Source of the DNA: Bdellovibrionota bacterium FG-2
GTDB lineage: Bacteria > Bdellovibrionota > UBA1018
Length of the DNA stretch: 15,736 nucleotides
Direction: 5' to 3'
Assembly (NCBI GenBank): GCA_051382305.1
Contig: JBBCAV010000411.1
Location: forward strand, 1 to 15,736
Position numbers and translations under genes: made by a program
Notes under the pieces: model-generated
The model's input: the letters and a program-made list of their open reading frames with translations, nothing else
Told to the model about the DNA's origin: nothing
Database searches by the model: none
Shown here: positions 1,388 to 15,736 of the stretch, piece by piece
How positions within the stretch are numbered: the first letter of the stretch is position 1
Layout: every line of letters begins with the position of its first letter

Positions 1388-1389
1388 AT

Positions 1390-1419
1390 TTGACGTTCGC
1401 TTTAATCCGAGTTTACTTC
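1390..1419 (+). promoter_or_regulatory. Possible sigma70-type promoter for the cold-shock gene
   Basis: TTGACG at 1390-1395 directly after the terminator. The -10 match is weak (TTTACT/TTACTT around 1412-1418). SD AAGGGGG lies before ATG 1462. Confidence 0.35.
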
Positions 1420-1461
1420 TAGGAAGTTGATTTTGTTTTATCTTTTTAAGGGGGTACTTAG

Positions 1462-1668
1462 ATGGCATCCGGATCAGTGAAATGGTTCAACGATAGTAAA
1501 GGTTATGGTTTTATTCAGGCAGACGGCGTGGAAAGAGAAGTTTTTGTCCACTATACGGCTATTACGGGCGAAGGTTTCAAAACCCTCGCTGAAGGCCAAA
1601 AAGTGGATTTCGAACTGATCGATGGCCCTAAGGGCCCCCAGGCTTCTAATGTCTTGAAGGCAAACTGA
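1462..1668 (+). CDS. cspA: Cold-shock protein (CspA family, 68 aa)
   Basis: VKWFN, RNP1 KGYGFI, RNP2 VFVHY, FKTLxEGQKVxF and GPKGPQAxNV motifs. The exact paralog is not assignable. Confidence 0.97.
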
Positions 1669-1693
1669 AGCCCATCAGCCAATTGAAATTCTT

Positions 1694-1727
1694 AAAGCAG
1701 GGTGCTTCGGTACCCTGCTTTTTTTTT
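1694..1727 (+). terminator. Rho-independent terminator with C(UUCG)G tetraloop
   Basis: AAAGCAGGGTGC-TTCG-GTACCCTGCTTT followed by a T-run. It lies between the convergent csp and aldehyde dehydrogenase genes. Confidence 0.93.
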
Positions 1728-1753
1728 GCTCGTTCTCTACCCACTTCGTGGGC

Positions 1754-3283
1754 CTAGTTCAGCCCTGGGTATTTCTTAAGTACTGCGGGCGGCTCAGGAA
1801 TCTCAATCGAAGTCACCGGCACCATACAATACATCGCAGAAAAAAGTGCTGTCGCGTAGTGGTTTCCACTCTTCTTGAGTCCGCCAAAAGGCAGCTTCGA
1901 GGAACCCCCGACGGTGGATCGATTCCAATTGATCAGCCCGGTTTCAAGTTCCGAAGCACATTTTTCAAAGATCGCGCGATCCTTCGTAAAGACGCTTGAA
2001 ACAAGACCGTATTGAGTTGCATTGGCCAGCGCGAGTGCATGATCCAGATCTTCAGTAACCAAAACCGCAGCGTTCGGCCCAAAAATCTCCGTCTGTTGAT
2101 AGACGCTCTTTAGGGCTGCCGCCACAGAGCACTCTTCCACCAGACAAATAGAAGGGGTCACATAATTGGAGCCCGAGGCCTTCACCCCTTCAACTTCTAT
2201 GGATTTACCCCGCATGATCACGTCACACTTTTCGCGGGTCGCGATTCCAATAAATTTCATATAGCGATCCACCGCCCCTTGATCAATCATTGGCCCCATA
2301 AAGGGCTGATTCAAGGGATGTCCGATAGTAAACGACTTCGCCCGCTCGTGAAAACGCGCCATGAACTGATCCAACAATTTTTTATGAACAATCACCCGAC
2401 TCGTGGCGGTACAGCGCTGGCCGGCCGTAATAAACGCGCCCACCAAAACCTCCTGAACTGCATACTCGAGATCCGCATCTTCCCAGATAATGGCAGAATT
2501 CTTGCCGCCCATCTGGAGGACTAGAAGCTTCCAGTGCTGTTGTAGGGTTTCTTGTTTGATTCGTGTACCGACTTCAAAAGAGCCAGAAAAGAGCACACCA
2601 GAAACATCTGGATGCGCACACAGCCTGCGTCCTACTTCACGCTCGCCTTGAACTAAATTAAAAACTCCCGACGGAAAACCCGCTTCTTCGAAGCACTCTG
2701 CGATCGCCTGCCCCACGAACGGCGTTTTTTCAGAGGGTTTCAACACAACCGTATTTCCAGACGCAATCGCCGGAATAATGTGGCCAAGCGCAACACTTCC
2801 TGGAAAATTAAAAGGCGTAATAACCGCCAAAACGCCTAACGCGCGGTAGCGGGATACTCCCGAGACTTCCCCTCCTGAAGCTGCAAGGACAATCTCCTTG
2901 GGGGTACGATCCACATCTTCGAGGGCAAAGCTGACTTTCCCTAACATGGATTCAAATTCCGTTTCAGCTTCCCAGAGGGGCTTTCCCGTCTCGCGAGAAA
3001 TCGACTGAACAATGAGCTCCCTCCGCGCCTCAAGCGCGGCGCTAAGGCGTACCAATAAATTCTTACGTTCTGTGGATAGGCTCTTCTTCCACAAGCGGAA
3101 CGCCTCACGCGCACTCAAAACAGCGGCATCAATCTGCCGATAGGAATAGGTAATTTTCGCAATCTCGTCAGCGGGGTCAACGGGGCTGCCGGCAATCCAC
3201 TCTCCACTGATGTCGGAAGAAATATCAAAAACATTTCGCACAAAACTTCCGCGATAATAAAGCTTGTTCCAAGAATGTGTCAT
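1754..3283 (-). CDS. astD: Aldehyde dehydrogenase, N-succinylglutamate 5-semialdehyde dehydrogenase (AstD)-like
   Basis: ETGKPLWEA, PFNFPG, GNTVVLKPSEKTP, FSGS, FITAGQRCT (catalytic Cys), EIFGP and PFGGLKKSGN motifs. Start chosen at 3283 (ATGA overlap with the upstream stop); 3289 is an alternative. The general-base Glu position reads Gln (LQMGGK). Confidence 0.8.
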   Translation of the reverse strand: MTHSWNKLYYRGSFVRNVFDISSDISGEWIAGSPVDPADEIAKITYSYRQIDAAVLSAREAFRLWKKSLSTERKNLLVRLSAALEARRELIVQSISRETGKPLWEAETEFESMLGKVSFALEDVDRTPKEIVLAASGGEVSGVSRYRALGVLAVITPFNFPGSVALGHIIPAIASGNTVVLKPSEKTPFVGQAIAECFEEAGFPSGVFNLVQGEREVGRRLCAHPDVSGVLFSGSFEVGTRIKQETLQQHWKLLVLQMGGKNSAIIWEDADLEYAVQEVLVGAFITAGQRCTATSRVIVHKKLLDQFMARFHERAKSFTIGHPLNQPFMGPMIDQGAVDRYMKFIGIATREKCDVIMRGKSIEVEGVKASGSNYVTPSICLVEECSVAAALKSVYQQTEIFGPNAAVLVTEDLDHALALANATQYGLVSSVFTKDRAIFEKCASELETGLINWNRSTVGGSSKLPFGGLKKSGNHYATALFSAMYCMVPVTSIEIPEPPAVLKKYPGLN

Positions 3284-4797
3284 ATACATGTTTTCTCTAT
3301 GAGTTTTTCGTAAAATAGGACCGCTTTTTCCAGCTCATCAACTAAAACGTACTCATTGGGTCCATGAGCGTTCCCACCGGAAATGCCCGGCCCAAATCCA
3401 ACCGCCTCGTAACCGGCATGAAAAAAGTGAGACGCTTCACTTGATGAAGACTGCTTGTCAAAATGAGGCTCCATTCCTGCAGCGGCCATGGCTTCCCGAC
3501 ACTTACCGATAAGGGGCTGCTCCGCGTTCATTTGAAGACCGGAATTTAGCCGCACCCGCTCAACACCTATGTTGAGACTCGGGTAGCTCGCCGTGAGTTT
3601 TTGAATACCCTTCTGAACCGTTTTTTCCATTTCTTCCGCAAAGGCTCCCGGCAAGAAACGAGCATCAAATTGTAGCTCCAACCGTCCGGGTTTCTGAATT
3701 AGTCTCCCAAAATTCAAAGAAGAATAAGGGGGTCTATAGGCATCGTCTCGAGCCTGGGTTAACTGCTCTGCTGAAACAGTAAAAAACCGGAGAATCTCTA
3801 AGAGGCAAGGAAAAAGGGGGTCTGGAAGAAAACGAATTCCGGTGTCTCCCGCTCCCCCAAATTCAACGCGAAATGACCGTGGAGGAAGTGAAGAGTCAAT
3901 GCCGCTTCCCGCTTCTAAGGGCCCATCTGGTTTTGCAACCTCCCGAAAAAACCGTTTAAAATCTTCAAACTGATGCGAGGTGAGATAAAATTGAATTAAA
4001 GAATGATCAGGAACCTTAGAAACGGTATCGCCACCTTCAAAATAGGTGAACCGAAGATCAAACCCGTTCTCAATCGCGCGATCCACAAAAGAAACTCCTT
4101 CATGAATGGCATTCACTCCTTTTTCTGGGAAAGCCCCATGGGCGGAGCGACCAAAAGTATGGAGATCGATACGGCGATTAAAGCCTCTGGCGTCTCTCTC
4201 AACCTGTTGATAATCAATTGTCAGCTTGAAGGTATTCACCGCTTTATGCTCAAAAACAACTTTGAGCTCTGATGGCTCACCTACAACAACATACCGAGGA
4301 TTCAGATAGTTCGATTTAATGAGATATCTAATTCCGAAACTCCCAAGCTCCTCGCCACAACTCCCCGCTAGATAAATGGGCATCCGCAGTTTCTTTTCTC
4401 GAAACTTGAGGACCGCGCGCAGTTTGCAGAGAAAATCAATTTTGCCATCTGCTGAACCCAGTCCAAAAATTTTCCCGTCGCGGATGACCGCCTGAAAGGG
4501 ATCCCCTCCCGTTTCTGTCCAACTCTGAAGAATTCCAGGACTAACTGTGTCGAGATGGGTTGAGAGCAATAGACCTTTGCGAATTTTCTTATCTACCAGT
4601 GGATCACCCAGAATACCGACTACATTGAACTGCCTTTTCGATACTCCCTCAAAAGAATGGGTAACTTGTTGAACCGTAGAGCGCAGGCCCCGATCGCTCA
4701 TCATCGTAGAGATGAAATTGGCGATTTCCTCATTGCCATCACTACTTACAGAGCGAATCTTGATGAGCTGTTTTGCGTCTTCTAGTAGTATTTTCAT
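3280..4797 (-). CDS. M20 family metallo-amidohydrolase (ArgE/DapE-like), ~505 aa
   Basis: STHLDTV, GLGSADGK, GEELG, VVGEPS, GRSAHG..P..GVNAI and AHGPNE motifs. Start MKILLEDAKQLIKIRSVS at 4797 matches the usual M20 N-terminal helix. Confidence 0.88.
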   Translation of the reverse strand: MKILLEDAKQLIKIRSVSSDGNEEIANFISTMMSDRGLRSTVQQVTHSFEGVSKRQFNVVGILGDPLVDKKIRKGLLLSTHLDTVSPGILQSWTETGGDPFQAVIRDGKIFGLGSADGKIDFLCKLRAVLKFREKKLRMPIYLAGSCGEELGSFGIRYLIKSNYLNPRYVVVGEPSELKVVFEHKAVNTFKLTIDYQQVERDARGFNRRIDLHTFGRSAHGAFPEKGVNAIHEGVSFVDRAIENGFDLRFTYFEGGDTVSKVPDHSLIQFYLTSHQFEDFKRFFREVAKPDGPLEAGSGIDSSLPPRSFRVEFGGAGDTGIRFLPDPLFPCLLEILRFFTVSAEQLTQARDDAYRPPYSSLNFGRLIQKPGRLELQFDARFLPGAFAEEMEKTVQKGIQKLTASYPSLNIGVERVRLNSGLQMNAEQPLIGKCREAMAAAGMEPHFDKQSSSSEASHFFHAGYEAVGFGPGISGGNAHGPNEYVLVDELEKAVLFYEKLIEKTCI

Positions 4798-4872
4798 TTT
4801 TATATGAGATATCACGCGCGTATTTTTGTTGCAAGGAAACCACACCCTTCGCTAACCTACGATGAAACCGCG

Positions 4873-5670
4873 ATGATTAAATTCCTTTCCTTCACCTTTA
4901 TTGTTTTCTGTTTTTTTAGCTTTTCGGGCGTTGCCGCAGACATTCCCCCGGGAACGCCGGTCGGCACCCCAGCTACCCCAGCCGCTCAATGGCAGACGCT
5001 CAAGGATCTTTATGCGGCCGGAAAATTAGATGCCGCCATTACCCTCCTGCAAGAGCGCCCTGAAGAAACGAGTAGCTATTATTATAACCTTGGTACTCTT
5101 TTTCTTCGAACTGAAAAAGTGGGGAAAGCGGTGGCCTACTTAGAAAAAGCCAACCATTTGAAACCCTATGACCCTGCGATCCAGCAGAATCTCTATGCGG
5201 CTCGAGATCGCCTGAGTCAAACACGAGGAGCTGATCAAATTGACCCTGCATCTAACGTAGTCGAGAGGGTTGCTGACCGAATCCTGCTCGATGAACTCAG
5301 GGGAATTCTTGGAATGGTGGGTCTTTGTCTCGTTCTTTTATGGCTTAGGGGTTACCTAAAGACACGCAGCATTCGACGCACATTCTTGACCCCCTCCGGA
5401 TTCGTCGCAAGCCTAGGCATGCTAATAACTCTCGGTCTTTATGCTGCGCAGCGCATCACCGAAAGCCATCCCCCTGCTGTGTGTTTTGAGCAGACCGCAG
5501 TTAGAAGTGGACCCGCCGACTCATTTTTGGAGCTTTCGAAGATCGAAGCGGGAACGAAAGTAAGAAGTCTCGGACCCACTGCAACGACGCTCGAAGACCT
5601 GTGGCGGCAAATAAAATATTCCGATGGCGGAATTGGGTGGGTTCGGGCATCGAACATATTGCTCTTATGA
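4873..5670 (+). CDS. TPR + two transmembrane helices + C-terminal SH3b-like domain protein (BatE-like)
   Basis: Signal peptide MIKFLSFTFIVFCFFSFSGVAA; TPR YYYNLGTLFLR...GKAVAYLEKA..LKPYD.AIQQNL; two hydrophobic segments; VRSGP...GTKV...WRQI..SDG.IGWV tail. Confidence 0.75.
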   Translation: MIKFLSFTFIVFCFFSFSGVAADIPPGTPVGTPATPAAQWQTLKDLYAAGKLDAAITLLQERPEETSSYYYNLGTLFLRTEKVGKAVAYLEKANHLKPYDPAIQQNLYAARDRLSQTRGADQIDPASNVVERVADRILLDELRGILGMVGLCLVLLWLRGYLKTRSIRRTFLTPSGFVASLGMLITLGLYAAQRITESHPPAVCFEQTAVRSGPADSFLELSKIEAGTKVRSLGPTATTLEDLWRQIKYSDGGIGWVRASNILLL

Positions 5671-5693
5671 ATGGCTTGTTCTAGGGTTAGCCT

Positions 5694-6347
5694 ATGTTTT
5701 TTCAGAAGATCGGTTTTATTTTTCCCTTAGTAGCTCTCTCCTTGGCTCTTAACCTTTTAGGCTGCGCCGGAAAGCCCGTAGACGAGAACGATCCAGCGGC
5801 GCTCTTTAAAGAGGCTGAAGAGGAAATCAAAGGGGACCACTATCAGATTGCCATCGAGAAGCTTCGCGTGGTGAAAAACAAGTTCCCTTATTCAAAGTTT
5901 TCCATCGATGCAGAACTTCGTATTGCAGATATCTATTTTTTGCAGGAGTCTTGGGGCGAGTCTGCGGTTTCTTACGAATCCTTTCGCGATCTTCACCCTA
6001 AACACGAGAAAACGGCCTATGCGATGTTTCGGGTCGGAAAATCCTATCTCAATGACGTTCCCGGTAACGTCGCCCGAGACCTCACCTCAGCCCAGAAGGC
6101 CGTGGACGCTTATGGCGAATTCATAAAACGTTTTCCAAACGATGGACAGTTGAAGGAAGCGCAAACAGATGTTTCAACACTTCGAAAGACTTTGGCGGAA
6201 AAAGAGCTTTATATCGGCAACTTTTATTTGAAGCGTGATTTTTTGGACTCGGCTCGACCTCGGTTTAAAAAGATTATCGACCTCTATCCTGAGACCCCAG
6301 CCGCGACTGAGGCCAAAGCAAAAATTGCGAAGATCGACTCCAAATAA
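5694..6347 (+). CDS. bamD: Outer membrane protein assembly factor BamD (lipoprotein)
   Basis: Lipobox LLGC; KFPYSKF, F..LHPKHEK..YA.F, RDLT.A..A...F..RFP and LAEKELYIGNFY.KR motifs typical of BamD/ComL. Confidence 0.92.
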   Translation: MFFQKIGFIFPLVALSLALNLLGCAGKPVDENDPAALFKEAEEEIKGDHYQIAIEKLRVVKNKFPYSKFSIDAELRIADIYFLQESWGESAVSYESFRDLHPKHEKTAYAMFRVGKSYLNDVPGNVARDLTSAQKAVDAYGEFIKRFPNDGQLKEAQTDVSTLRKTLAEKELYIGNFYLKRDFLDSARPRFKKIIDLYPETPAATEAKAKIAKIDSK

Positions 6348-6360
6348 AGGGAATACCTTA

Positions 6361-7083
6361 ATGCCGCGCTCCGGATTCGATCAAGAGATCCAAGACCTGC
6401 TCAATCAGCGACAATTTGATAAAGCAGAAAAGCTTATTCGCGAATGGATTGAACGTGAGCCCGACAGTGCGGATGCGTATTATTTTTTGGGTGTTACCTT
6501 TTACTTTCAAGGCCAACTTGGTCAAACCGTCGAAAATTTAAAAACCGCTCTTTCGCTCGATCCCCACCACACTGATGCAAGCATTTGCCTGTCCGTCCTC
6601 TATAACGATATTGGAAAATACGATGACGCTGGCCGCGTTTTTGATCAGGCCAACCAATCTGTTTTTCAAAAAGAGAGATCGGGGACCGACGAAATCGACA
6701 GAAAGTTTGCCGTCAAACATTTGGAAATCGCCGACCTGTATTATCGATATCGCCGGTTCGATGAGGCCATCGAGGAATACGGTAAGGCCATTTTGTTAGA
6801 TTCGGAAACTCTTGATATTCGCATTCGTCGAGCCAAAGCTTATGCAAAGAAAGGGTTCGTCACTCGCGCCCTTCAAGAACTTCAACAGCTCAAACGGGAA
6901 CATCCCGACTTCTTGCCGGGAAAACTTCAGTTGGGGCTTCTGCATTATAGCCAAGCCAACATCTTAGATGCAGAGCTTGAATGGGAAAGCGTGCTAGAGC
7001 TTGAACCTACAAATCGCGAGGCATCTGCCTATCTGGAATTGGCTCGAAAAAATCGTGTCAAATCCGCGCCTGCAAAAAACTAG
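6361..7083 (+). CDS. Tetratricopeptide repeat protein (240 aa), probably cytoplasmic
   Basis: Several TPR units (ADAYYFLGVTFYFQGQ...ALSLDP; HLEIADLYYRYRRFDEAIEEY.KAI; LQLGLLHYS...VLELEP). SD AAGGG lies before ATG 6361. No signal peptide. Confidence 0.85.
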   Translation: MPRSGFDQEIQDLLNQRQFDKAEKLIREWIEREPDSADAYYFLGVTFYFQGQLGQTVENLKTALSLDPHHTDASICLSVLYNDIGKYDDAGRVFDQANQSVFQKERSGTDEIDRKFAVKHLEIADLYYRYRRFDEAIEEYGKAILLDSETLDIRIRRAKAYAKKGFVTRALQELQQLKREHPDFLPGKLQLGLLHYSQANILDAELEWESVLELEPTNREASAYLELARKNRVKSAPAKN

Positions 7084-7084
7084 A

Positions 7085-7657
7085 CTACCCGTGAAGAGTT
7101 TTCACAGTAAGTGACGGGGGTATGTTTCGAATAGCGACCGGACTCATGATCGGCCCCTGTTCCTGAATTTCGCTCGGAACTGATGGCGCGCGTTTTTGAG
7201 AGTTGATCGTAATTAAATGAGCACGCAGCTCTTTAAACATAGGGTGCTTGATTGTGTATTCATTTTCCTGAAGTACAACCTGTTTTGCGATCTGCTCCTT
7301 CAAGTTAACCACAATCGGGGCCTTTAAGTTCGCAGTCATTTGCGTAATATCTTCTGGAATCGTCAGGATACTAAACACCGCCGACTGATTCACGTTATCT
7401 AATTTCAATTCACGAAGCTCCGCACCTGAAAGGCGTACGGCATAATCCATTCTAAAGAGCTTGGGCTCTAAAACTGGAAAAGCGATCTCTAGGTTTTCTA
7501 AAGATTGGAGCCATAAGATCAACGTTTCATCGCCTGGATCAACCAGCGCAAAACGTGTGTACTCAGGAAAACCAAATACCCCCTGAGGAATCTGAATTAA
7601 CTCTTCGTCACCGATGGTGAGCTGTCCAAAACGTCCTGTTTTAATGATCACGCTCAT
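7085..7657 (-). CDS. fliW: Flagellar assembly factor / CsrA antagonist FliW, with C-terminal extension
   Basis: TGRFG, GVFGFPE, WLQS, ILTIP...MTANLKAPIVVN and QVVL...Y..KHP motifs; adjacent to csrA. Confidence 0.95.
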   Translation of the reverse strand: MSVIIKTGRFGQLTIGDEELIQIPQGVFGFPEYTRFALVDPGDETLILWLQSLENLEIAFPVLEPKLFRMDYAVRLSGAELRELKLDNVNQSAVFSILTIPEDITQMTANLKAPIVVNLKEQIAKQVVLQENEYTIKHPMFKELRAHLITINSQKRAPSVPSEIQEQGPIMSPVAIRNIPPSLTVKTLHG

Positions 7658-7699
7658 GTCCCCTTTGTTAGATGGTTGATAAAATACACTTCCATCCGT

Positions 7700-7921
7700 T
7701 CATGCTTTCAACACCTTTGAAACCTGCACCATGTTCACCGCCTTAACTGCTTCCTTGTTCTGATCTTGGATTGCAGTATAGACTTCTTCACGATGAATTT
7801 TCGTCTCTTTGGGCGCTTGAATGCCTAGCCTCACCTGTTTACCTTTGATCTGCACCACCACAATTTTAATGTGGTCGTCGATCGCAATGCTTTCCCCGAG
7901 CTTTCGGGTTAGTACTAACAT
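7700..7921 (-). CDS. csrA: Carbon storage regulator CsrA, FliW-responsive type
   Basis: MLVLTRKLGESIAI...VRLGIQAP..IHREEVY. R44 and N55 are present, with a C-terminal helix as in B. subtilis CsrA. Confidence 0.97.
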   Translation of the reverse strand: MLVLTRKLGESIAIDDHIKIVVVQIKGKQVRLGIQAPKETKIHREEVYTAIQDQNKEAVKAVNMVQVSKVLKA

Positions 7922-7922
7922 A

Positions 7923-7936
7923 AGATCTCCATATCT
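7923..7936 (-). promoter_or_regulatory. Putative CsrA site: ANGGAN hexaloop hairpin over the csrA SD
   Basis: mRNA reads AGAT-ATGGAG-ATCT-T-ATG. A second AGGGA lies at 7952-7956. Confidence 0.5.
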
Positions 7937-7998
7937 GCCTAAAGCAAGTATTCCCTCACGGTTGAACGTTTATTCTAACGCCCCGCCACTTGCAACTG

Positions 7999-8994
7999 CT
8001 ACTTTAAAAAATCAATTAATGTCGGCTGAATTAGTTTATGCGAACTCGTTAACGCATTCTTTAAAACAGCCTCCTCTCTAGAAGTATCACTCACCACTTG
8101 TGCCATATCTGCGTCTTCAATCGCTGAACTCAAGGTCGCGTTAGCAATATTATGACGCTCCAGGGTATTGCCTGTGGTTTCAATTCCATGAAGCCGAGAA
8201 CCCAACCTTGTTCGCATCGTAATCACTCGGCTTTGGATCTGATCCAGACGCTCCAAGGTTGAGCGCACACCCTCTGTGTCTCCCGTCAAGAGCGCAATCC
8301 TAAGATTCTGTATCTCGTCAAAAACATTGACATTTTGTGACTGATCGGGCGCCTGTCCGCCCGCCTCCTCTATCGCTGACGCGGGTGCCCGCGTCTTTGT
8401 GTCCTGGCCTTCATACGAATTTTTTCTGGAATCAAATGAATTTTTTGGATGAGTATTAAATGCCTCAATTCCGGAAACGTTGCTCGCTACAAAAACATCT
8501 TTTGCAATCTCTACCATCATTTGACCGGAGTCACCCTGATAGCGCCCTTCGGCGTCGATGGGTGCCTTTTGAGTCTTAAATCCACCAAACAAATATCGAT
8601 CACCAATCCGCCGGTTTGCCGTCGCCACAGCTTGTTGAAAAAGCTGTTGAACTTCCTCGGCAACACCCAAGCGGGTGTCCTCACTGGTATTGGCGTCGCT
8701 AGATTGCCCGAGCGCTATTTCTTTCGCACGCATCAAAATTTCTGAAATCTCACTCAACGCATGTTCGGTATTAGCTAAAAAAGTCTGCGCAAGTTTTGAG
8801 TTCATTTGAAACTGATCATTATTCACTTTGTCCGTCCTAATCTCCAAGAGCTTCGACACTCCCACGGGATTGTCAGAAGGGGTGTTGATCTTTTTCATCG
8901 TTGCCGATTGCTGCTGGAGCCCGTCCATCCGCTCCCGACTCTTTCGGATCGATTCCTTCACTGTTTCAAAATTTGTGTTCTCTGTGACTCTCAT
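7999..8994 (-). CDS. flgL: Flagellar hook-associated protein 3 FlgL
   Basis: MRVT, KKINTPSDNP, GDRYLFGG and C-terminal IEDADMA...IQPTLIDFLK motifs; follows flgK. Confidence 0.95.
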   Translation of the reverse strand: MRVTENTNFETVKESIRKSRERMDGLQQQSATMKKINTPSDNPVGVSKLLEIRTDKVNNDQFQMNSKLAQTFLANTEHALSEISEILMRAKEIALGQSSDANTSEDTRLGVAEEVQQLFQQAVATANRRIGDRYLFGGFKTQKAPIDAEGRYQGDSGQMMVEIAKDVFVASNVSGIEAFNTHPKNSFDSRKNSYEGQDTKTRAPASAIEEAGGQAPDQSQNVNVFDEIQNLRIALLTGDTEGVRSTLERLDQIQSRVITMRTRLGSRLHGIETTGNTLERHNIANATLSSAIEDADMAQVVSDTSREEAVLKNALTSSHKLIQPTLIDFLK

Positions 8995-8997
8995 TTA

Positions 8998-10419
8998 TTA
9001 CCGTTTCAAATCTAAAACTGTTTTTAGCATTTCATCAGCCACCTGAATAACCTTTGCCGAAGCATCAAAGGAGTGCTGAAACTGCATCAAATTCGCGGTT
9101 TCTTCGTCTACGGAAACTCCAGAAACCCTCTCCCGCATTTTTCCTAACTGCGTGTTAATGTCCCGCTGTTGGTTAAGCCCCGAGCGATTGCGCGCCGAAA
9201 TAACGCCCACATCGCTCACGATAGAATTAAACCAATCATCAAGAGTTGACTTACCCTCATGCATGACTTTCAGATGCTGCAAACCTGAAATAGCAAGGGC
9301 AATTCGATTATCGCCCGGAGCATCGGGTTGCGCGGCCGTTGCGATGTGATCCACATTTGATTTAACCGCTTCAGATAAATCAAAAAACTCCGCTGCGCGA
9401 TCCTTCGAAACAGGAGACGTAAAAAAGTCCACACCCTGAAGGCCGTTTCGCGTAAACCCTTGTTGATGAATTTCATTTACAGACTGAGACAGATTGAAAG
9501 CAAGGTCATCGAGTTTCGATAGAACTGTTGTAAGCGTCTTATCCCGAACCTCAAGCAACGCGCCAATTTTTCCACCTTTAACTTGATGAGTAATGTCGCC
9601 ACCCGCTCGCGCCGTGGTCTGCAAAGAATAGGCGCCCTCCCCTTTTCCCTGATCATCTGCCGGAGAGCGAACCACCATGAGTTTTTCTGACTCCGTGCCC
9701 GTCACCAGTGGACCCACGCCTTTAATATCAACAAAAAAATCTCCCCGATGATCCTTATGGAGGGCTACATCCATTAACGATCCCAATTTTTTCATCAGCT
9801 GATCGCGCTGATCGCGTAGGTCATTGGCGGGCGTTTTGCTAAGGTCCCTCTGATTAATACTATGATTAAGCCGCTTCAAATCTTCTGCCAGCGCACTTGC
9901 TTCACCTGCATAAGCCTCAACGCGCGAATCCAGATGGTTCCGGACATCCATCACTTCACCACGAATACGATGAAAATCATTCACGAGCGCCAATGAAGCT
10001 TCTCGAACAGATTCGCGAACCGCCTCATTTTCAGGCTCATTGGCAAGTTTTCTAAAATCATTAAAGAATCTCGAAATCACGCGATTCAAGCCTTCGCCAT
10101 TTACTTCATTGAAAATGTCCTCAAGCTGACGAAGACCCATATCTTTTTCTTCCATCCCAGCCATATCACGAGCGCCGTTTCTAAGTTGGCGCTCTAGGTA
10201 CTCATCATTCACGCGATCAATACCCGTGACCTCCACACCACTTCCAACCGCGCCCTTCGCAAGAATACTTCCTTGCGGAGACGCATTGGCGACACCCACT
10301 TTTTGCCGTGAATAGCCCTCGGTGTTCGCATTGGCGATATTATGACCCGCGGTCGCGATCGCAGTCTTCGCTGCGGCCATTCCCGATCGACCTGTGGTTA
10401 AAACGCCAGAAACACCCAT
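8998..10419 (-). CDS. flgK: Flagellar hook-associated protein 1 FlgK
   Basis: GHNIANANTEGYSRQ, NDLRDQRD, GGKIGALL and VSGVSVDEETANLMQFQHSFDASAKVI motifs. Confidence 0.97.
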   Translation of the reverse strand: MGVSGVLTTGRSGMAAAKTAIATAGHNIANANTEGYSRQKVGVANASPQGSILAKGAVGSGVEVTGIDRVNDEYLERQLRNGARDMAGMEEKDMGLRQLEDIFNEVNGEGLNRVISRFFNDFRKLANEPENEAVRESVREASLALVNDFHRIRGEVMDVRNHLDSRVEAYAGEASALAEDLKRLNHSINQRDLSKTPANDLRDQRDQLMKKLGSLMDVALHKDHRGDFFVDIKGVGPLVTGTESEKLMVVRSPADDQGKGEGAYSLQTTARAGGDITHQVKGGKIGALLEVRDKTLTTVLSKLDDLAFNLSQSVNEIHQQGFTRNGLQGVDFFTSPVSKDRAAEFFDLSEAVKSNVDHIATAAQPDAPGDNRIALAISGLQHLKVMHEGKSTLDDWFNSIVSDVGVISARNRSGLNQQRDINTQLGKMRERVSGVSVDEETANLMQFQHSFDASAKVIQVADEMLKTVLDLKR

Positions 10420-10424
10420 CTAAT

Positions 10425-10443
10425 TTTCAAACCTCCTTTGAAA
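10425..10443 (-). promoter_or_regulatory. Hairpin presenting the flgK SD (GGAGG) in its loop; putative CsrA site
   Basis: mRNA TTTCAAA-GGAGG-TTTGAAA, a perfect 7-bp stem ending 5 nt before ATG 10419. Confidence 0.5.
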
Positions 10444-10939
10444 TAAATCTTCCACCCGGGGCAGAGAGGACTTTCTTGCCATGCTGCCCGTATACCTGTG
10501 ATTTGGAGCCAGTCGTCCCCCTGGCGTTGCCCTGCATAGCGCGAACATGCTCCAGCGAGTGCTCCAAGAACTGTCGATTATCTTCATTTTGATCCGTAAT
10601 TCGCTGGATCATGATCACAAGCGTATTTTGAAGACTGCGAAAATGCTCTGCCTTTTTCTGATCCTCACCTTGCACGCGAATCGCTATCTCGCTCAGCGTA
10701 AGATCCTGGACGGGCGTTTTAAGATCCAAAGAAACCTCAACCAGCGTTCGTTGCCGTGCGGCCTCTGCATGTCGAATCGCCTCAATCAGCGCTTGCTTGG
10801 CATGAGTCGTCTCATCAATAGACTTCAAGTCAACTTGGACAAGTGCTTCACGTTCCATACGAACCGTGTCCAAAAGCTGCTTGTGCAAGCCGACAAGGGT
10901 CTGCAAATTAATAAAAAGATTTTCTAATGATTTCTGCAC
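10427..10939 (-). CDS. flgN: Flagellar export chaperone FlgN
   Basis: Helical protein between flgM and flgK, with LL....EREALV..D...I....K..L and N..N..FLEHSL...YG..G patterns. GTG start with AGGAGG SD. Confidence 0.88.
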   Translation of the reverse strand: MQKSLENLFINLQTLVGLHKQLLDTVRMEREALVQVDLKSIDETTHAKQALIEAIRHAEAARQRTLVEVSLDLKTPVQDLTLSEIAIRVQGEDQKKAEHFRSLQNTLVIMIQRITDQNEDNRQFLEHSLEHVRAMQGNARGTTGSKSQVYGQHGKKVLSAPGGRFISKEV

Positions 10940-10941
10940 GT

Positions 10942-10960
10942 CGCAATCCTCCTGATCGCG
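10942..10960 (-). promoter_or_regulatory. Hairpin presenting the flgN SD in its loop; putative CsrA site
   Basis: mRNA CGCGATC-AGGAG-GATTGCG, a 7-bp stem with one G-U pair, ending 2 nt before GTG 10939. Confidence 0.5.
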
Positions 10961-10967
10961 CGTACGT

Positions 10968-11306
10968 TCAGCCGAGGTCTGCTGTCTTCAGATGCTCATC
11001 CACGAGCTTATCGGCTACGGCGTCCGCGTTGACTTCATATTTACCCGCCGAAATTCGGCGCTTGAGTTCAGCAATTTTTTCTTCGCGCACATCTGGCGCT
11101 TGAGAGGCCACGGCCTTTGCTTTCGCAAATTCCTTGCCTCGCGCGGACAACTCCGTCTTCGCACTATCTGTCGAAGAAGACGTATCTGTTACTTTAGATT
11201 TTCCGGTTTTTTTCGCATTTTGAGTCGCAGCTGCATTTCCCGCTTGCCGCGTATTCGCGACATCTGCACCCTGAATCGAATTATTTCCTGTTTGATTGAC
11301 CCTCAT
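10968..11306 (-). CDS. flgM: Anti-sigma-28 factor FlgM (112 aa)
   Basis: ELS...PDVREEKIAELKRRISAGKYEVNADAVADKL motif. SD AAGGAGGT before ATG 11306; the longer ORF-track start is unlikely. Confidence 0.93.
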   Translation of the reverse strand: MRVNQTGNNSIQGADVANTRQAGNAAATQNAKKTGKSKVTDTSSSTDSAKTELSARGKEFAKAKAVASQAPDVREEKIAELKRRISAGKYEVNADAVADKLVDEHLKTADLG

Positions 11307-11757
11307 CGGTACCTCCTTGCACGCCTTGGGCTTTAGCTTGAACTTCGCCTTGCACTTCTTTGGCGACTTCTTGCCGCCCCGGGGCTCCTGCCCCTCTCCC
11401 TTGAGTGTACCTTTGTGCCTCAAGATAAGCAATAATCTGATCAGCCAATCCTATTCCACCCACCTGCGCCGCCTTCTGAGCATACTCGGAATCTAACATC
11501 CCGCGATAAATATTTGACGCCGGAGACTCAAGATCCATATCATTTTTTGGAATCGTCTGCCTCATAGCACTCATCATATGATTGATAAACATTGATTCCA
11601 TGCCCTCAGCGGCACGGATAACGCTCGGATCGACCTTAGAGCGGTCCACTGGGTAGATACGATGCGCCGGGGTTGAGGTGTCTGTCAATTTCCTGACGCC
11701 CCCCCCTTGGGGGGAGGGGGGAGGAACTGACCGTCCCAGGGCGATGGGTGTGGTCAT
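11281..11757 (-). CDS. flgJ: Flagellar rod-binding protein FlgJ (short form, no muramidase domain)
   Basis: AAEGMESMFINHMMSAMRQTIPK...IYRGMLDSEYAQ..GGIGLADQI rod-binding motif. Start uncertain (ATG 11757 or TTG 11688). The tail overlaps flgM by 26 nt. Confidence 0.85.
   Translation of the reverse strand: MTTPIALGRSVPPPSPQGGGVRKLTDTSTPAHRIYPVDRSKVDPSVIRAAEGMESMFINHMMSAMRQTIPKNDMDLESPASNIYRGMLDSEYAQKAAQVGGIGLADQIIAYLEAQRYTQGRGAGAPGRQEVAKEVQGEVQAKAQGVQGGTDEGQSNRK
11309..11405 (-). promoter_or_regulatory. Three GGA-loop hairpins upstream of and over the flgM SD; putative CsrA sites
   Basis: CTC-AAGGGA-GAG (11405-11394), GGGGC-AGGA-GCCCC (11394-11381) and GTGC-AAGGAG-GTAC (11322-11309). Confidence 0.5.
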
Positions 11758-11786
11758 CCTTCCCCCCTCCGCCGCAAAGACAAAGC
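11698..11786 (-). promoter_or_regulatory. Long imperfect RNA hairpin sequestering the flgJ SD and start codon
   Basis: GGAGGGGGGA(A)GGA pairs with TCCTCCCCCCTCC. It continues inward with TGACC/GGTCA and CCCA/TGGG, and outward with GCTTTGTCTTTG/CAAGGGGGGGGC (G-U rich). Confidence 0.65.
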
Positions 11787-11951
11787 TCGGTCGCCATCAC
11801 TCGCTTCCTTGCGAGCCTGGCTTGATTCAGAACGAAAGAGACCTACCATCCTAGCGGGCCGTTTTTCCTGTCCTGTTTCCTGGATATTGCCAACCCCATC
11901 TTCCATGATGATTGGGCGTCCGAGCCGCGTCTTGCGGCAACCTTTGATCAC
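11754..11951 (-). CDS. Putative 65-codon bridging/leader ORF between flgI and flgJ
   Basis: Its GTG start overlaps the flgI stop (GTGA, 11951-11948) and its TGA overlaps the flgJ ATG (ATGA, 11757-11754). No recognisable domain. Confidence 0.3.
   Translation of the reverse strand: MIKGCRKTRLGRPIIMEDGVGNIQETGQEKRPARMVGLFRSESSQARKEASDGDRALSLRRRGEG
11793..11938 (-). ncRNA. Candidate CsrB/RsmZ-like GGA-hairpin RNA element in the flgI-flgJ spacer
   Basis: Hairpins CCAAT-CATC-ATGGAA-GATG-GG-GTTGG (11915-11890) and GCCA..CTCGC-AAGGAA-GCGAG..TGGC (11821-11793), three CAGGA in 11882-11866, and TAGGATG at 11853-11847. Confidence 0.5.
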
Positions 11952-12988
11952 ATAATCTCCAAATCTGCTTGTAATGCTCCTGCTTGCTTCAACGACTGAA
12001 AAATTGAGGTCAAATCTTTTGGCTGAACTCCTAGAGCATTCAGCGCTTTCACTAATTCGGAAACACTCGATCCCCCTTTTACCTCAAATACGCGCTCGGG
12101 GCGGGTCCCCTTAGATGCTCCTTTGATTTCAATTGCAAGCTCCCCATGGGCCAAGGCTACGGCTGAAATAGGGATATTGCTTCCCATCACAATCGTTCCT
12201 GTGCGCTCATTCAAAACCACTTTTGCACGCGTATCTACATTAACATTAATGTTTTCAAGCGTCGCAAGCAGGTCAACCGAGGTACCGGTGTAATTAAAAG
12301 GGACAACAACATCAATCGTCCCACTGTCTCTTGCGGTCGCAAACTTCCCTGAAAGCTCGCCGTTAATTAGAGCGGCGACGCGGGCTGCAGTGGTAAAATC
12401 CGAATTATGAAGTGAGAGTCTGAAATTCTTTTTCGCTGCAAAATTCGTATCGACATCCTTTTCAATCGCTGCCCCACTCACGACTCGACCGACTGTTGGA
12501 AAATTTTTCGTCGTTCCATCTGCAATACTTCCAATACTGACCTGACCTTGAGCTACCGCGTAAACCGCCTGATCTCCGGCTCGAAGTGGCGTTACTAAGA
12601 GCGTGCCACCTTCCAGACTCGCCGAATCCCCAATAGAACTCACAGTCACATCAATCAAGTTACCCACTCGTGCGAAAGGGGGCAGTTTTGCGGTTACAAT
12701 CACTGCCGCTGCATTTTTTGATTTTATTTGCGCATTTCCCTGAATATCTAAACCAAGTTTACCGAAGAGTCGAGAGAGGGACTGATTCGTCACTTCAGAA
12801 CTCGAATCTCCAGTACCTTTTAGTCCCACTACAATCCCGTAGCCAATCAAAATATTATCACGAACGCCTTTGACGGACGCCACGTCTTTGAGTCTCGCAG
12901 TGAGCCCCTCTCTGGGAATCACCAGAATCAAAAGTACGAGAATTAAAAATGTGATGCGATTACCGAACTGCTTCAAGGCGATATTCAT
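11948..12988 (-). CDS. flgI: Flagellar P-ring protein FlgI
   Basis: RLKD...GVRDN.LIGYGIVVGL.GTGD, KNAAAVIVTA.LPPF, SLEGGTLL.TPL, NERTGTIVMG and LKQAGALQADLEIM motifs. Start taken at ATG 12988 (signal peptide follows). Confidence 0.96.
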   Translation of the reverse strand: MNIALKQFGNRITFLILVLLILVIPREGLTARLKDVASVKGVRDNILIGYGIVVGLKGTGDSSSEVTNQSLSRLFGKLGLDIQGNAQIKSKNAAAVIVTAKLPPFARVGNLIDVTVSSIGDSASLEGGTLLVTPLRAGDQAVYAVAQGQVSIGSIADGTTKNFPTVGRVVSGAAIEKDVDTNFAAKKNFRLSLHNSDFTTAARVAALINGELSGKFATARDSGTIDVVVPFNYTGTSVDLLATLENINVNVDTRAKVVLNERTGTIVMGSNIPISAVALAHGELAIEIKGASKGTRPERVFEVKGGSSVSELVKALNALGVQPKDLTSIFQSLKQAGALQADLEIM

Positions 12989-14027
12989 AAAGTTTTCCCG
13001 ATGTAACAACATCTTCTTCATTGATGTCTGATCCTTTTACAATCCCAACCAACGAAACAAGTCTTGTCCCGCCCCCTTTATAGGCGACTTTACGAATCGC
13101 GCGAACCTTGTAATTCCCATTTGGAAATCGCTCCGTTATTTCACCCATCATTGTATCGTCTGCTTTGATCTCAAGTGATTTTGAAAGATCAATATCGGAA
13201 ACCGTCGCGCGCGGCATCTCAAGCTCCACCTTCTTCTTGTCACCCATGACACTATTAGCTTCGGCAGGGGCCCGTGCGGGCGCGGCTGCGGCCGTTGCAA
13301 TGACATCCTTACTTTTTTCTTTGCCGTCTTTGCCGCTTCCGTCTTTATCTTTTTCTGCATTTGGGTCTTCCAGTCCCAAAATTTTCGCTCTAATTCGATC
13401 CTGTGCTCGCGCAAGTTCTAGCTGCTTCTCAAGGGGGGTCAGTGTTTTTTTGACTTCACTATTTACGTCTCTTACCAGCTCCGGCTCCACCTTCACAGTA
13501 ACGATGTCACCGACTGATCGAACCTTATTCTTCAGAAAGTAATAGTTTGTCTGCCCGCTTGAAGCCCAAAGCGAGCCCTCATTGTCAGACTCATCAATGA
13601 AATCCGACCGCGTTGCGCGTCCCGGGGATTTATAGAGGCGTTTCGTCGCCGGCTCCAACACAGGGGTCGCCCCAGAGCTCACGGCTGTTTCTTCTCCTCC
13701 CGTGCCTCCTCGTGAGCCGCCCGAACGACGCATTCCATCTCGACGATTTGCTTCCTGCCGAGACGGACTCACCCAAGAGCTCCGACTTCCGCTCTTTGTC
13801 GACCCTTCACTCGCGAGTCCGCGACCTTGAGAAGAATAGTACGGTTCATCATCACTGTTGGCGCCGCCCTCAGACATAAAGCCGCGTTCATCCCAAGATC
13901 CGCCATAAGTTCCGGAATCGGAGTCAGCATATTCATCCCCGCGGCCCCGGAAAGCCGCAAGGTTTGCACAGGCACCCAAGAAAAACACGCCAGTGACCAT
14001 CACGAGAGAAAGTCTTAATGCGTTCAT
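12960..14027 (-). CDS. flgH: Flagellar L-ring protein FlgH, divergent and elongated (355 aa lipoprotein)
   Basis: Lipobox LGAC (Cys20); GSLW...VGDIVTVKV, PNGN and LVGIV...DI....V.S.K motifs; located between flgA and flgI. Confidence 0.85.
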   Translation of the reverse strand: MNALRLSLVMVTGVFFLGACANLAAFRGRGDEYADSDSGTYGGSWDERGFMSEGGANSDDEPYYSSQGRGLASEGSTKSGSRSSWVSPSRQEANRRDGMRRSGGSRGGTGGEETAVSSGATPVLEPATKRLYKSPGRATRSDFIDESDNEGSLWASSGQTNYYFLKNKVRSVGDIVTVKVEPELVRDVNSEVKKTLTPLEKQLELARAQDRIRAKILGLEDPNAEKDKDGSGKDGKEKSKDVIATAAAAPARAPAEANSVMGDKKKVELEMPRATVSDIDLSKSLEIKADDTMMGEITERFPNGNYKVRAIRKVAYKGGGTRLVSLVGIVKGSDINEEDVVTSGKLYEYRLEAVR

Positions 14028-14725
14028 AATGGCACCTCAACAACTCCACCGGCTTTGAGTTCCCCTAGAAGAGCCTTCTTCGTTTTCGTCGCCATAACAC
14101 GAACGGGCTGATTCAAATAGGCCGCCTCCTCCGCAATTCCCGGCGCAGTGAGAAGTAGACCCGAGGTTAAGAGATGAATCCGAACCGAATCGCCTCTTCT
14201 TATGTCCGGAATCCGCTGGGTAGCCGATGAAACTAAGGGCTGTCCTTCTAAAATGGTTTGCCGGGATTCAAGTCGTGAGATCTCCTCTAGAGGAGACAGG
14301 ATTAAGCCGCGAAACTCATGCGCCTGCCCGACCGCTACATTTATACGTTGTTCTGAGAATTGCGCCGCGGAAAGTGCGGATCCAGGAAGAATTCTTTTAG
14401 TCGCAACTCTTGCTGGGACAAAAGCCGAAAATCCTACGCGTCCTTGGGCACGTGCCGCTCCAGGCTCGCCGACAACGGTGAAATAGATTTCTCCGCGACC
14501 ATTTTCTTCAACGCTCAAGACCGAAATACCCTGCTCCGGCACACGCCCCGAGAGCCACTCGATGTTCGTCGTTAAAGTAATATCAGAACCCGTAAATTGC
14601 TTAGCGAGTTCCTTACTGATGAGTTCTCGCAAATCTATTTCTGCCGAAAGGACAAGGCCCGACCAAGTCCCCACCAGCAGAATCGCCCAAAATTTAAACA
14701 CCCGTCGCCCCCTTAGTGTTTTCAC
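14024..14725 (-). CDS. flgA: Flagellar P-ring formation chaperone FlgA
   Basis: Signal peptide, SAF-like VATKRILPG, C-terminal IRRGDSVRI...L.LTAPG.A...VRV....KK.L.G....G.VEV; ATGA overlap with flgH. Confidence 0.88.
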   Translation of the reverse strand: MKTLRGRRVFKFWAILLVGTWSGLVLSAEIDLRELISKELAKQFTGSDITLTTNIEWLSGRVPEQGISVLSVEENGRGEIYFTVVGEPGAARAQGRVGFSAFVPARVATKRILPGSALSAAQFSEQRINVAVGQAHEFRGLILSPLEEISRLESRQTILEGQPLVSSATQRIPDIRRGDSVRIHLLTSGLLLTAPGIAEEAAYLNQPVRVMATKTKKALLGELKAGGVVEVPL

Positions 14726-14728
14726 TCA

Positions 14729-15511
14729 CTACTTGATGTTCGCAGTGGCTCCCCACATTTGATCCGCTACGCCCATCACTTTTGTTCCCATTTCATACGC
14801 ACGCTGTGTGGCAATCATCTCGACCATACTATTTGCCACATTCACATTCGAAGCCTCTAAAGCGCCCTGCTGAATAAGTCCGACACCATTTTCCCCTGGC
14901 ATCATCTGAATCGGCGCCCCCGTTGCTGGAGTCGGCTTATAAAGACCTTCTCCTAATGCATTAAGTCCCTGCTCATTTTGAAAATTCACCAACTGAATTT
15001 GCCCTAAAACTATTTCACTTCCATTGGGAAGCTGTGCCTTCACTTCGCCTGAATTGCTCACCACCATGTTGGTCGCATTATTGGGAATGGTTATTTGTGG
15101 CACGAGCTGGGCGCCATTCGAAAGCATCATTCTTCCTTGGGAATCCGTGTGAAAGGCCCCCGTTCGCGTGTAAGCAATCTCGCCATTAGGCGTTTGAACC
15201 GGAAAGAATCCTTTTCCTGAAATCATCAAATCAAATGGATGATAGGTCATTTTCGCGGGACCCGGCTCAAAAAGTTTATGGGAGGCACCTACTTTCACGC
15301 CAAGCCCCGTTTGAATTCCTACCGGCGTTTGTGTTGAAGCGCCTAAAGAGCCACCAGCCTCCTTGATTGTTTCATACATGAGATCCTGAAATTCATTTCG
15401 ACTGCGTTTGTAACCGTCCGTATTCACGTTGGCCAAGTCGTTCGAGATCCGCTCGATATTTGCCGCCTGTGCTTCCAGGCCTGTTGCTGCGGTGGTTAGC
15501 GCTCGAATCAT
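14729..15511 (-). CDS. flgG: Flagellar distal rod protein FlgG
   Basis: MIRAL.TAATG..AQ, SNDLANVNTDGYK, FQDLMY, G.Q.GLGV, AYTR.GAF and LEASNVNV...MI..QRAYEM..KV motifs; 260 aa. Confidence 0.97.
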   Translation of the reverse strand: MIRALTTAATGLEAQAANIERISNDLANVNTDGYKRSRNEFQDLMYETIKEAGGSLGASTQTPVGIQTGLGVKVGASHKLFEPGPAKMTYHPFDLMISGKGFFPVQTPNGEIAYTRTGAFHTDSQGRMMLSNGAQLVPQITIPNNATNMVVSNSGEVKAQLPNGSEIVLGQIQLVNFQNEQGLNALGEGLYKPTPATGAPIQMMPGENGVGLIQQGALEASNVNVANSMVEMIATQRAYEMGTKVMGVADQMWGATANIK

Positions 15512-15536
15512 TTATCTTGTCCCTCTAAGAAGAAGT

Positions 15537-15736
15537 TCACAATTTACCAATGTCATTTGCTTCCTTGCTCAAAAGTTCCCCGTACGTCTTCATCGCTTTC
15601 AGGTCGTGCTCAAAGAGCCGATTTGCCTGTAAAAGACGTGTAATCTCTTCGACCGGGTTTACATTCGAGGTTTCAATCATTCCTTGCCGTACCTGGGTGC
15701 GCGACAGCGTGGTCGATAGATTCGCGGGGTCAGGAT
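15537..15736 (-). CDS. flgF: Flagellar proximal rod protein FlgF, C-terminal part (gene continues beyond window)
   Basis: Not in the ORF track. Manual translation from 15734: PDPANLSTTLSRTQVRQGMIETSNVNPVEEITRLLQANRLFEHDLKAMKTYGELLSKEANDIGKL-stop, a rod/hook C-terminal motif directly upstream of flgG. Confidence 0.88.
   Translation of the reverse strand, partial: PDPANLSTTLSRTQVRQGMIETSNVNPVEEITRLLQANRLFEHDLKAMKTYGELLSKEANDIGKL

Follow-up and report, generated by a model that had tools for sequence, protein, structure and literature searches.

A conserved structured RNA, read through by a small bridging open reading frame, between flgI and flgJ in an order of Bdellovibrionota: a putative CsrA operator

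The flgI-flgJ junction and its GGA motifs

The stretch of 15,736 nucleotides (nt) on contig JBBCAV010000411.1 (positions 1 to 15,736) of Bdellovibrionota bacterium FG-2, called the window below, carries on its minus strand a string of flagellar genes in the order flgG, flgA, flgH, flgI, flgJ, flgM, flgN, flgK, flgL, csrA and fliW. The source genome is a draft of 433 contigs, 85% complete. Pfam confirmed all genes of the string except flgG, flgK and flgL, which were named from the translations of their open reading frames (ORFs). Our subject is the junction between flgI, encoding the P-ring protein (11948-13021, minus strand; PF02119, E 2.4e-111), and flgJ, whose product comprises the rod-binding domain only (11281-11757, minus strand; PF10135, E 1.8e-13). 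An initial reading of the DNA, referred to as the original prediction, had placed here a CsrB/RsmZ-like array of GGA hairpins within a flagellar operon that also encodes CsrA and FliW. Both genes do lie in the same string: csrA (7700-7921, minus strand; PF02599, E 3.9e-26) is found about 3.8 kb downstream of the flgI-flgJ element, and fliW, encoding the protein antagonist of CsrA, is found at 7085-7657 (minus strand; PF02623, E 3.1e-38). We report that the flgI-flgJ region is a conserved structured RNA of about 170 nt and seven helices, and that a small ORF is kept open through it from the flgI stop to the flgJ start.

On the messenger RNA (mRNA) strand, here the minus strand, the 193 nt from 11947 to 11755 contain 10 GGA triplets, exactly the number predicted, whose first G stands at 11921, 11904, 11880, 11873, 11868, 11851, 11808, 11770, 11763 and 11759. 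The two predicted hexaloops closed by C-G pairs (CAUC-AUGGAA-GAUG at 11910-11897 and GCUCGC-AAGGAA-GCGAGU at 11816-11799) are present, as is the UAGGAUG at 11853-11847. The three tandem CAGGA copies (11882-11866) were found as well, but only the first is invariant in relatives; the second is part of a helix described below as P-A and reads CAAGAC or CGAGAC in most of them. The chance expectation of three to four GGA that had accompanied the count proved too low, since shuffles give 5.9 (mononucleotide) or 6.7 (dinucleotide), and against these shuffles the raw count is only marginal (P = 0.029 and 0.053, respectively). At least 10 GGA occur in just 0.7% of the 193-nt windows along the operon strand. 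The number of GGA in hairpin loops of the minimum free energy (MFE) fold is a stronger single-sequence statistic than the raw count: three were observed versus 0.54 +/- 0.68 in 1000 dinucleotide shuffles, of which six reach three. This enrichment over shuffled sequence was one of the checks proposed with the original prediction, and it came out in its favour.

A CsrA dimer bridges sites lying about 10-63 nt apart. The GGA at 11904, 11880, 11851, 11808 and 11770 follow each other at spacings of 24, 29, 43 and 38 nt, and these spacings of 24-43 nt fall within the dimer-bridging range of CsrA-repressed operators.

A covarying RNA fold and a bridging ORF in one stretch

The 261 nt from 11960 to 11700 fold at -118.9 kcal/mol (z -4.26), and none of 200 shuffles is as stable. 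The two hexaloop hairpins, named HP1 and HP2, and a third GGA hairpin, HP-B, are all found in the minimum-energy fold of the window sequence, which adds to these three a closing helix P1 (11938-11920 with 11790-11771), a helix P-A around HP-B and a hairpin over the flgJ ribosome site. All features of the fold lie on the minus strand. The 5' strand of P1 (GCCGCAAGACG.GGCUCGG, 11920-11938), taken from the MFE fold, shows up to six pair types per position, and its 3' strand (CCGAGCU.UGUC.UUGCGGC, 11771-11790) is drawn from the MFE fold, from covariation and from the duplex energies of the flanks. HP1 (11897-11910) presents the GGA at 11904-11902 in its hexaloop, and three of its four pairs covary. 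It is followed by an invariant junction, UCCAGGAAAC (11875-11884), with a GGA at 11880-11878. Helix P-A spans 11828-11875 and pairs CAGGAC (11875-11870) with GUUCUG (11833-11828), five of the six pairs changing on both sides; it encloses HP-B together with a semi-conserved AGGAA (GGA at 11868-11866). In HP-B (GGCC.GCUA-GGA-UGGU.GGUC, 11840-11860), which contains the invariant GCUAGGAUGG (11855-11846) and has its tip GGA at 11851-11849, 94.9% of alignment cells are paired. Finally, HP2 (11799-11816) presents the GGA at 11808-11806 in its hexaloop, and all six of its pairs change on both sides.

These changes were read from related loci collected in two ways. The FlgI homology set consisted of 41 genomes (the window's own and 40 of its family and order), with a FlgI match in 38. 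The best 30 FlgI places were taken as loci, the window's own included, and the 29 of them with a flgI-flgJ gap, called the 29 relatives, form a sample that is unbiased for the GGA motif. This set was then enlarged with loci from a motif search, which after removal of duplicates gave 72 unique loci.

Covariation analysis of related flgI-flgJ spacers, also proposed beforehand as a check, places the GGA loops on covarying stems. In a nucleotide alignment of the 29 relatives that was not fitted to any model, 89.8% of cells in the three GGA-tip hairpins are paired versus 26-46% when the pairing is slid, double-change cells number 59 versus 8-28, and none of 500 shuffles reaches any of the five measures. 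P1 finds support without any alignment: cognate flanks pair at a mean of -39.2 versus -30.1 kcal/mol for non-cognate flanks, and the cognate flank pair beats the median non-cognate one in 96% of 53 loci. A covariance model, R1 (181 positions, 37 pairs), was built from 24 relatives. Run on 78 loci, it gives a single match at the flgI-flgJ site in 76 and none in the remaining two, L029, which has no spacer, and L039, a chance motif hit in a metagenome-assembled genome (MAG) of Terriglobales. The R1 alignment of 77 sequences, which leans towards the model, has 86.9% of cells paired versus 30-45% in slid controls, 499 double-change cells versus 114-159 and a covariation score of 0.497 versus about 0.1; of 500 shuffles, none reaches the observed value on four measures and three do on the fifth. 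In this alignment all seven helices of the element hold pairs changed on both sides. In the window the full match to R1 covers 11769-11940 on the minus strand (162.3 bits, E 7.9e-58), the only strong match there and the single one in the genome, which contains one copy of the element.

The GGA sites are kept along with the stems. Among the 29 FlgI-found relatives, the junction GGA, the HP-B tip GGA and the HP2 loop GGA occur in 29/29 and the HP1 loop GGA in 28/29; the GGA in the inner loop of P-A, which belongs to the third tandem CAGGA, occurs in 21/29. Over all R1-matched sequences the HP1 and HP2 loop GGA are found in 74/76 and 68/76, respectively; 47 of these 76 rows had been picked by the motif pattern, which biases the junction and HP-B counts in that set. 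The HP1 and HP2 loops are mostly ANGGAN over the 76 sequences, for example AUGGAA in 23 and 21 of them. In the alignment of the 29 relatives CCAGGA, identical in 29/29, and GCUAGGA.GG never vary, third codon positions included. The original prediction had staked itself on the GGA loops persisting in relatives that keep csrA, and they do persist.

These results bear on whether a G/A-rich spacer simply happens to hold GGA. The raw count, marginal against shuffles (P 0.03-0.05), would allow it, but conservation, covariation and the fixed flgI-flgJ position (70 of 71 motif stretches, see below) rule out a chance origin of the array, to which we give practically no credence.

The junction had further been described as a spacer and as the largest gap of an otherwise tightly packed operon. 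The other junctions measure indeed at most 77 nt, but the gap is exactly filled by an ORF of 65 codons (11951-11754, minus strand), here called orfX, whose GTG start overlaps the TGA stop of flgI (11950-11948) in a GTGA and whose TGA stop overlaps the flgJ ATG in an ATGA (11757-11754). A GGAG Shine-Dalgarno sequence for this ORF (11957-11960, minus strand) is provided by the Leu-Glu codons of flgI (UUG GAG). The flgI-flgJ gap is at least 190 nt long in 29 of 30 loci; in the remaining one, L029, the GTG start of flgJ falls right on the flgI stop. Read from the flgI stop, the frame is uninterrupted in 26 of the 29 gapped loci, interior stops in frames 0, +1 and +2 numbering 11, 69 and 150 over 2468 codons, whereas a shuffled spacer would be open with a mean probability of 0.02. 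An ORF through the RNA core ends on the flgJ start in 65 of the 72 unique loci, and it is in this respect that the spacer is not non-coding: 54 loci have an ORF from the flgI stop to the flgJ start and 11 have an internal start with the end still on the flgJ start. Three others (L041, L070, L071) start on the flgI stop but fail the 3' criterion, and four (L021, L022, L030, L058) have no such ORF. We also considered a sub-clade that would keep the RNA without any ORF and rejected it, as the frame is open there and ends on flgJ, and only the start differs.

Sequence choice upstream of the ORF fits its translation start. In the 54 loci with a coupled ORF, the Leu/Val codon before it ends in G in 54/54, the Glu codon is GAG in 50/54 and the flgI stop is TGA in 54/54; for comparison, the operon's own genes use GAA and GAG 90 and 87 times and a Leu codon of the NNG type in 79 of 230 cases. 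The direct contact of flgJ with the flgI stop in L029 suggests that coupling at the junction came first and that the fold was inserted later, the frame being kept open to preserve the coupling.

An ORF kept open with both overlaps could also mean that the stretch is chiefly a gene for a small flagellar protein, the GGA excess and the hairpins being by-products of its codons (Q-E-T-G-Q-E, R-M, K-E). An N-terminal block, W-x-D-F-x-L-D-D..G-P-x-L, is indeed found in 39 of the 54 unique coupled ORFs with the periodicity of coding sequence (entropy 0.80/0.57/1.38). However, the window's own ORF has lost this block, and core residues vary where the stems covary while synonymous sites are frozen: the element core shows no third-position periodicity in the ORF frame (entropy 0.41/0.50/0.54), and the Ala GCU and Arg AGG codons are unchanged in 54/54 ORFs, 25 of these loci being motif-picked; the CAG codon never varies either. 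The product also belongs to no family, since no Pfam or NCBIfam family scored above cut-off for eight small-ORF products, and the ESM Atlas gave no usable match, the model of a 99-residue relative being disordered (predicted local distance difference test, pLDDT, 0.33). We hold this explanation to be very unlikely.

In a hairpin at the 3' end of the element (11706-11778, minus strand), the G-rich ribosome site of flgJ and its ATG (GGAGGGGGGAAGGAUG, 11770-11755) are locked by pairing with the C-rich flgJ codons 11-17. At least 7 of the 13 nt upstream of the flgJ start pair with the downstream coding sequence in 50 of 54 loci (mean z -3.05). A sequestered Shine-Dalgarno sequence of the target gene and an upstream ORF stop on the target start, the two features that define the iraD subtype of CsrA target, are both present. 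Judged from the sequence, this combination is a textbook set-up for obligatory translational coupling: because the flgJ site is buried, flgJ would be efficiently translated only when a ribosome leaving the small ORF melts the hairpin. Sub-threshold Rfam matches to animal microRNA precursors fall on this hairpin between G-run and C-run and are artefacts of its GC-rich nature.

Distribution of the element and of other GGA hairpins

An exact motif search in one genome per species (185,579 species) returned 71 stretches, of which 70 immediately follow a flgI homologue, and 67 are in addition followed by a flgJ match. The motif-bearing relatives are labelled Bacteriovoracaceae, Bacteriovorax, 'Oligoflexia' or 'Bdellovibrionales', all Bdellovibrionota. 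R1 was also run on 151 genomes from the whole phylum: it matched 18 of the 23 genomes of the window's order (its own included), did not match the single genome from another order of the class, and gave two weak matches among the 127 genomes of the rest of the phylum. The latter (G104 and G175) are false, as tblastn found no FlgI or FlgJ within 4.2 kb around each and the folds are unlike the element. Outside one order of predatory Bdellovibrionota, and at sites other than the flgI-flgJ junction, the element was not found. One MAG, labelled Bacteriovorax stolpii (L042), carries the element at its flgI-flgJ site and has a second, weak R1 match (23 bits, 2481-2609, plus strand). This second match contains two GGA hairpins (GGCC-GUGGAU-GGCC and GAGGC-AUGGAA-GCUUC) and falls within an ORF of 310 codons that lies just upstream of flgG.

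A scan of 11200-12400 with Rfam 15 at E values up to 10 gave no family, only sub-threshold microRNA-type and other chance matches; the kinship with CsrB/RsmZ RNAs that had been proposed finds no Csr/Rsm family to rest on. Likewise, consensus searches for promoters and terminators (sigma-70 type, with sigma-54 and sigma-28 patterns) found nothing above chance near the element, and these consensuses give no sign of a separate transcript. Among public sequencing runs, no RNA run containing the stretch was listed. Of the papers listed for CsrA in Bdellovibrio, none describes the element, supplements apart.

The original prediction had left the choice between a CsrA sponge and a multi-site operator. 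As a sponge, the domain, within the mRNA or as a fragment protected by P1, would titrate CsrA away from flagellin mRNAs and add to the action of FliW. Four to six GGA sites in one compact domain recall multi-hairpin decoy RNAs, and according to passages of PMC4894983 the flaA mRNA of Campylobacter jejuni also titrates CsrA in an organism that has FliW. However, no promoter or terminator consensus flanks the element, no Rfam match links it to a Csr/Rsm RNA, and a conserved translated ORF runs through it, whose ribosomes would unfold the fold. Moreover, the element is present in one copy per genome as part of the csrA mRNA, and its capacity of two to three dimers is small unless a fragment accumulates. 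We consider a sponge unlikely. The operator fits the anatomy better and is preferred because of the coupled ORF and the sequestered flgJ ribosome site.

What ties the element to CsrA is circumstantial but consistent. The csrA gene is present in 38 of the 41 genomes of the homology set, usually 4-5 kb downstream of flgI on the same contig. Over both strands of the window's genome (8.68 Mb in all) there are 380 hairpins with an ANGGAN hexaloop and a stem of at least four pairs, and two or more of them lie within 150 nt on one strand at six places, where about 2.5 pairs would be expected at random. One of the six is the flgI-flgJ element and two are leaders of flagellin, the classical target of CsrA, on contig C413. 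The other three (C1, minus strand, about 17511-17571; C159, plus strand, about 417-506; C290, plus strand, about 14723-14795) may be CsrA targets or chance.

The C413 leaders (about 975-1060 and 2245-2345) are near-identical and precede two tandem flagellin genes. In each, a hairpin with a GGA hexaloop (GAGC-AUGGAU-GCUC or CGAGC-AGGGAA-GCUUG) and another GGA hairpin precede a mini-ORF of four codons (AUG AAY GGA GGC UAA), and the GGAGG within this mini-ORF acts as ribosome site for the flagellin AUG. Such a leader looks like a putative CsrA operator with coupling through the mini-ORF.

GGA hairpins also occur at this junction in other families, with unrelated sequence. In another family (genus g54: L124, L125, L129-L132), 6/6 genomes have a flgI-flgJ spacer of about 95 nt containing two GGA hairpins, of which the downstream one lies at the flgJ AUG itself. 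A conserved extended -10 box of the type TGCTA(G/C)AAT stands before both hairpins, and these spacers resemble a flgJ leader with a promoter of its own and the canonical two CsrA sites. In a third family (f20, locus L126), the flgI-flgJ gap of 421 nt has 7 GGA, several of them in ANGGAN hairpins (CGC-AGGAU-GCG, ACC-AAGGAA-GGU and UCGC-ACGGAU-GCGA), and R1 does not detect this spacer. Since GGA hairpins are found in the flgI-flgJ spacers of two other families, control of flgJ through them looks older than the fold described here.

Published work contains related cases. Passages of PMC4894983 report that C. jejuni CsrA binds the flgI, flgH, flgA and flgM mRNAs as well as sites between genes of polycistronic mRNAs. 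In Geobacter, flgJMNKL-csrA-fliW is transcribed as one operon with a regulatory region before flgJ, as stated in passages of PMC11934962. For Bdellovibrio bacteriovorus, passages of PMC13443453 report that its CsrA repressed a hag reporter of Bacillus subtilis and that 'very little is known' of its targets. A conceivable counterpart of the element is APsRNA1 of B. bacteriovorus HD100, which Table 2 of PMC3627812 lists at 499,375-499,581 (plus strand) with 207 nt and 50,451 RPKM in attack phase; that paper mentions neither flgI, flgJ nor CsrA, and in the six genomes of the one other genus examined flgI is not near these coordinates.

A structured RNA with a job independent of CsrA, in which GGA would be part of the fold or of another site, has also to be weighed. 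It could be an element of processing or stability that sets flgAHI against flgJMNKL-csrA-fliW levels, a pause site or attenuator that tunes the coupling, or the site of another protein. The invariant UCCAGGAAAC and GCUAGGAUGG and the helices P1 and P-A are under stricter constraint than CsrA sites typically are, part of what we labelled block A can pair with the conserved GUCUUGAUUC, and while csrA occurs throughout the phylum sample, the element is confined to one order. On the other hand, GGA is kept in loops whose other letters vary (ANGGAN), and the same type of hairpin marks the flagellin leaders of this genome and, with unrelated sequence, the flgJ leaders of another family. We judge this explanation unlikely.

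Among the neighbouring genes, the csrA product of the window has R44, E46 and N55 in its sequence, N55 being a residue that we take to matter for FliW binding. Passages of PMC11934962 describe a conserved arginine and a conserved glutamate of CsrA as essential for RNA binding and highlight a conserved N55. FlgH (12960-14027, minus strand) begins with a long N-terminal extension of low complexity (about 145 residues) in which G, S, R and D are frequent, and its Pfam match covers residues 148-352, after this extension. The flgH ORF overlaps the annotated flgI start by 62 nt, and one of the two starts is probably further downstream.

A putative operator acting through coupling, and its known counterparts

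The reading that we favour, and which we would back about evenly against its failing, is that of a CsrA operator acting through the bridging ORF by translational coupling, as in iraD, on flgJ-flgMNKL-csrA-fliW. PMC5574718 describes Escherichia coli iraD as having four CsrA sites, a structure that sequesters its Shine-Dalgarno sequence and an upstream ORF whose stop overlaps the iraD start, CsrA blocking the upstream ORF and thereby the coupled gene. For the flgI-flgJ element, we infer that CsrA is the ligand, that its binding blocks the ORF and that the downstream genes follow. P1 encloses HP1, HP-B, HP2 and P-A, and GGA is offered at three hairpin tips and at one invariant single-stranded junction. 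The small ORF would be read from the flgI stop through the whole fold to the flgJ start, where the arriving ribosome would open the flgJ hairpin. Free CsrA, encoded downstream in the same string, would clamp the GGA sites of the folded RNA; the clamped fold would hinder translation of the bridging ORF and flgJ would stay shut. Polarity or decay might extend the shut-off to flgM-flgN-flgK-flgL-csrA-fliW. CsrA would in this way exert negative feedback on the operon that encodes it, and this feedback would sense the flagellin/FliW state.

Where the ORF starts internally, in one sub-clade, the AUG is preceded by the HP1 GGA at a distance of about 25 nt and followed by the invariant GGA after 6-8 nt, a geometry that appears canonical for a CsrA operator. 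In the window, the GGA of the start region are only those of the ORF's GGAG(A) (11960-11956) and of the flgJ G-run.

Several points speak against an operator. Its weakest point is the position of the GGA hairpins, which in the window and in most relatives stand 45-150 nt into the ORF and not at its start. CsrA is not known to halt ribosomes during elongation. In the window type, either CsrA would need to cover the GGAG(A) of the ORF or ribosomes that re-initiate would need to be hindered by the fold. The rod requires FlgJ at an early stage, so it is not obvious why free CsrA should repress it before the hook is complete. The invariant blocks of 10 nt and the long P1 exceed what CsrA sites usually need and could reflect another ligand or a tertiary fold. 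Same-order genomes that lack the element (G032) still keep csrA. Lastly, the consensus scans found no promoter near the element.

A related possibility is a switch set by translation. Ribosome traffic from flgI over the small ORF to flgJ would melt the fold, and when traffic stops the fold would shut and capture CsrA. We regard such a translated switch as decidedly doubtful. If true, the pool of free CsrA, and hence flagellin synthesis, would respond directly to how much the basal-body operon is translated, and an RNA antagonist set by its own translation would work beside FliW.

Coming back to the element itself, the flgI-flgJ 'gap' of the annotation is corrected to a gene plus an RNA element, in which one stretch is under two constraints at once, a covarying RNA fold and an open frame that serves as a ribosome bridge. 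In bacteria with FliW, CsrA control is generally attributed to the protein antagonist and to flagellin mRNA. The present locus provides a defined, conserved RNA of about 170 nt with four to five kept GGA presentations inside a csrA-fliW operon, and its presence in the MAG labelled Bacteriovorax stolpii makes CsrA autoregulation or RNA titration directly testable in a culturable genus.

The small RNAs CsrB, CsrC and RsmX/Y/Z carry arrays of GGA in hairpin loops and single-stranded linkers, and the element resembles them in presenting GGA in the loops of HP1, HP-B and HP2 and in a single-stranded junction. Unlike them, it has no Rfam match, is not a separate non-coding gene, has far fewer sites than CsrB and overlaps a conserved ORF, and its host uses FliW.

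With the flagellar leaders of B. subtilis hag and of C. jejuni flaA and flgI the element shares GGA hairpin loops in flagellar mRNAs of a host with csrA and fliW, as described in passages of PMC13443453 and PMC4894983; the latter also report that C. jejuni CsrA binds between the genes of polycistronic mRNAs. However, leaders of the hag/flaA type have one to three sites near the ribosome site, whereas the element is about 170 nt long with seven helices and four GGA, plus a fifth in 21 of the 29 relatives, and it is translated through and stands before flgJ rather than flagellin.

In plan the element resembles iraD, which according to PMC5574718 also has several GGA sites far upstream of the start, a sequestered Shine-Dalgarno sequence and an upstream ORF stop on the target start. 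Unlike in iraD, in most genomes the upstream ORF of the element is in turn coupled to flgI before it, the GGA sites stand within the ORF, enclosed by a large, conserved, closed fold, and not around the ORF start, and the putative target operon holds csrA and fliW. The element would thus be of a known kind, a CsrA-type GGA array in an mRNA coupled through an upstream ORF, and what appears new is its fold, its place and the double use of one stretch.

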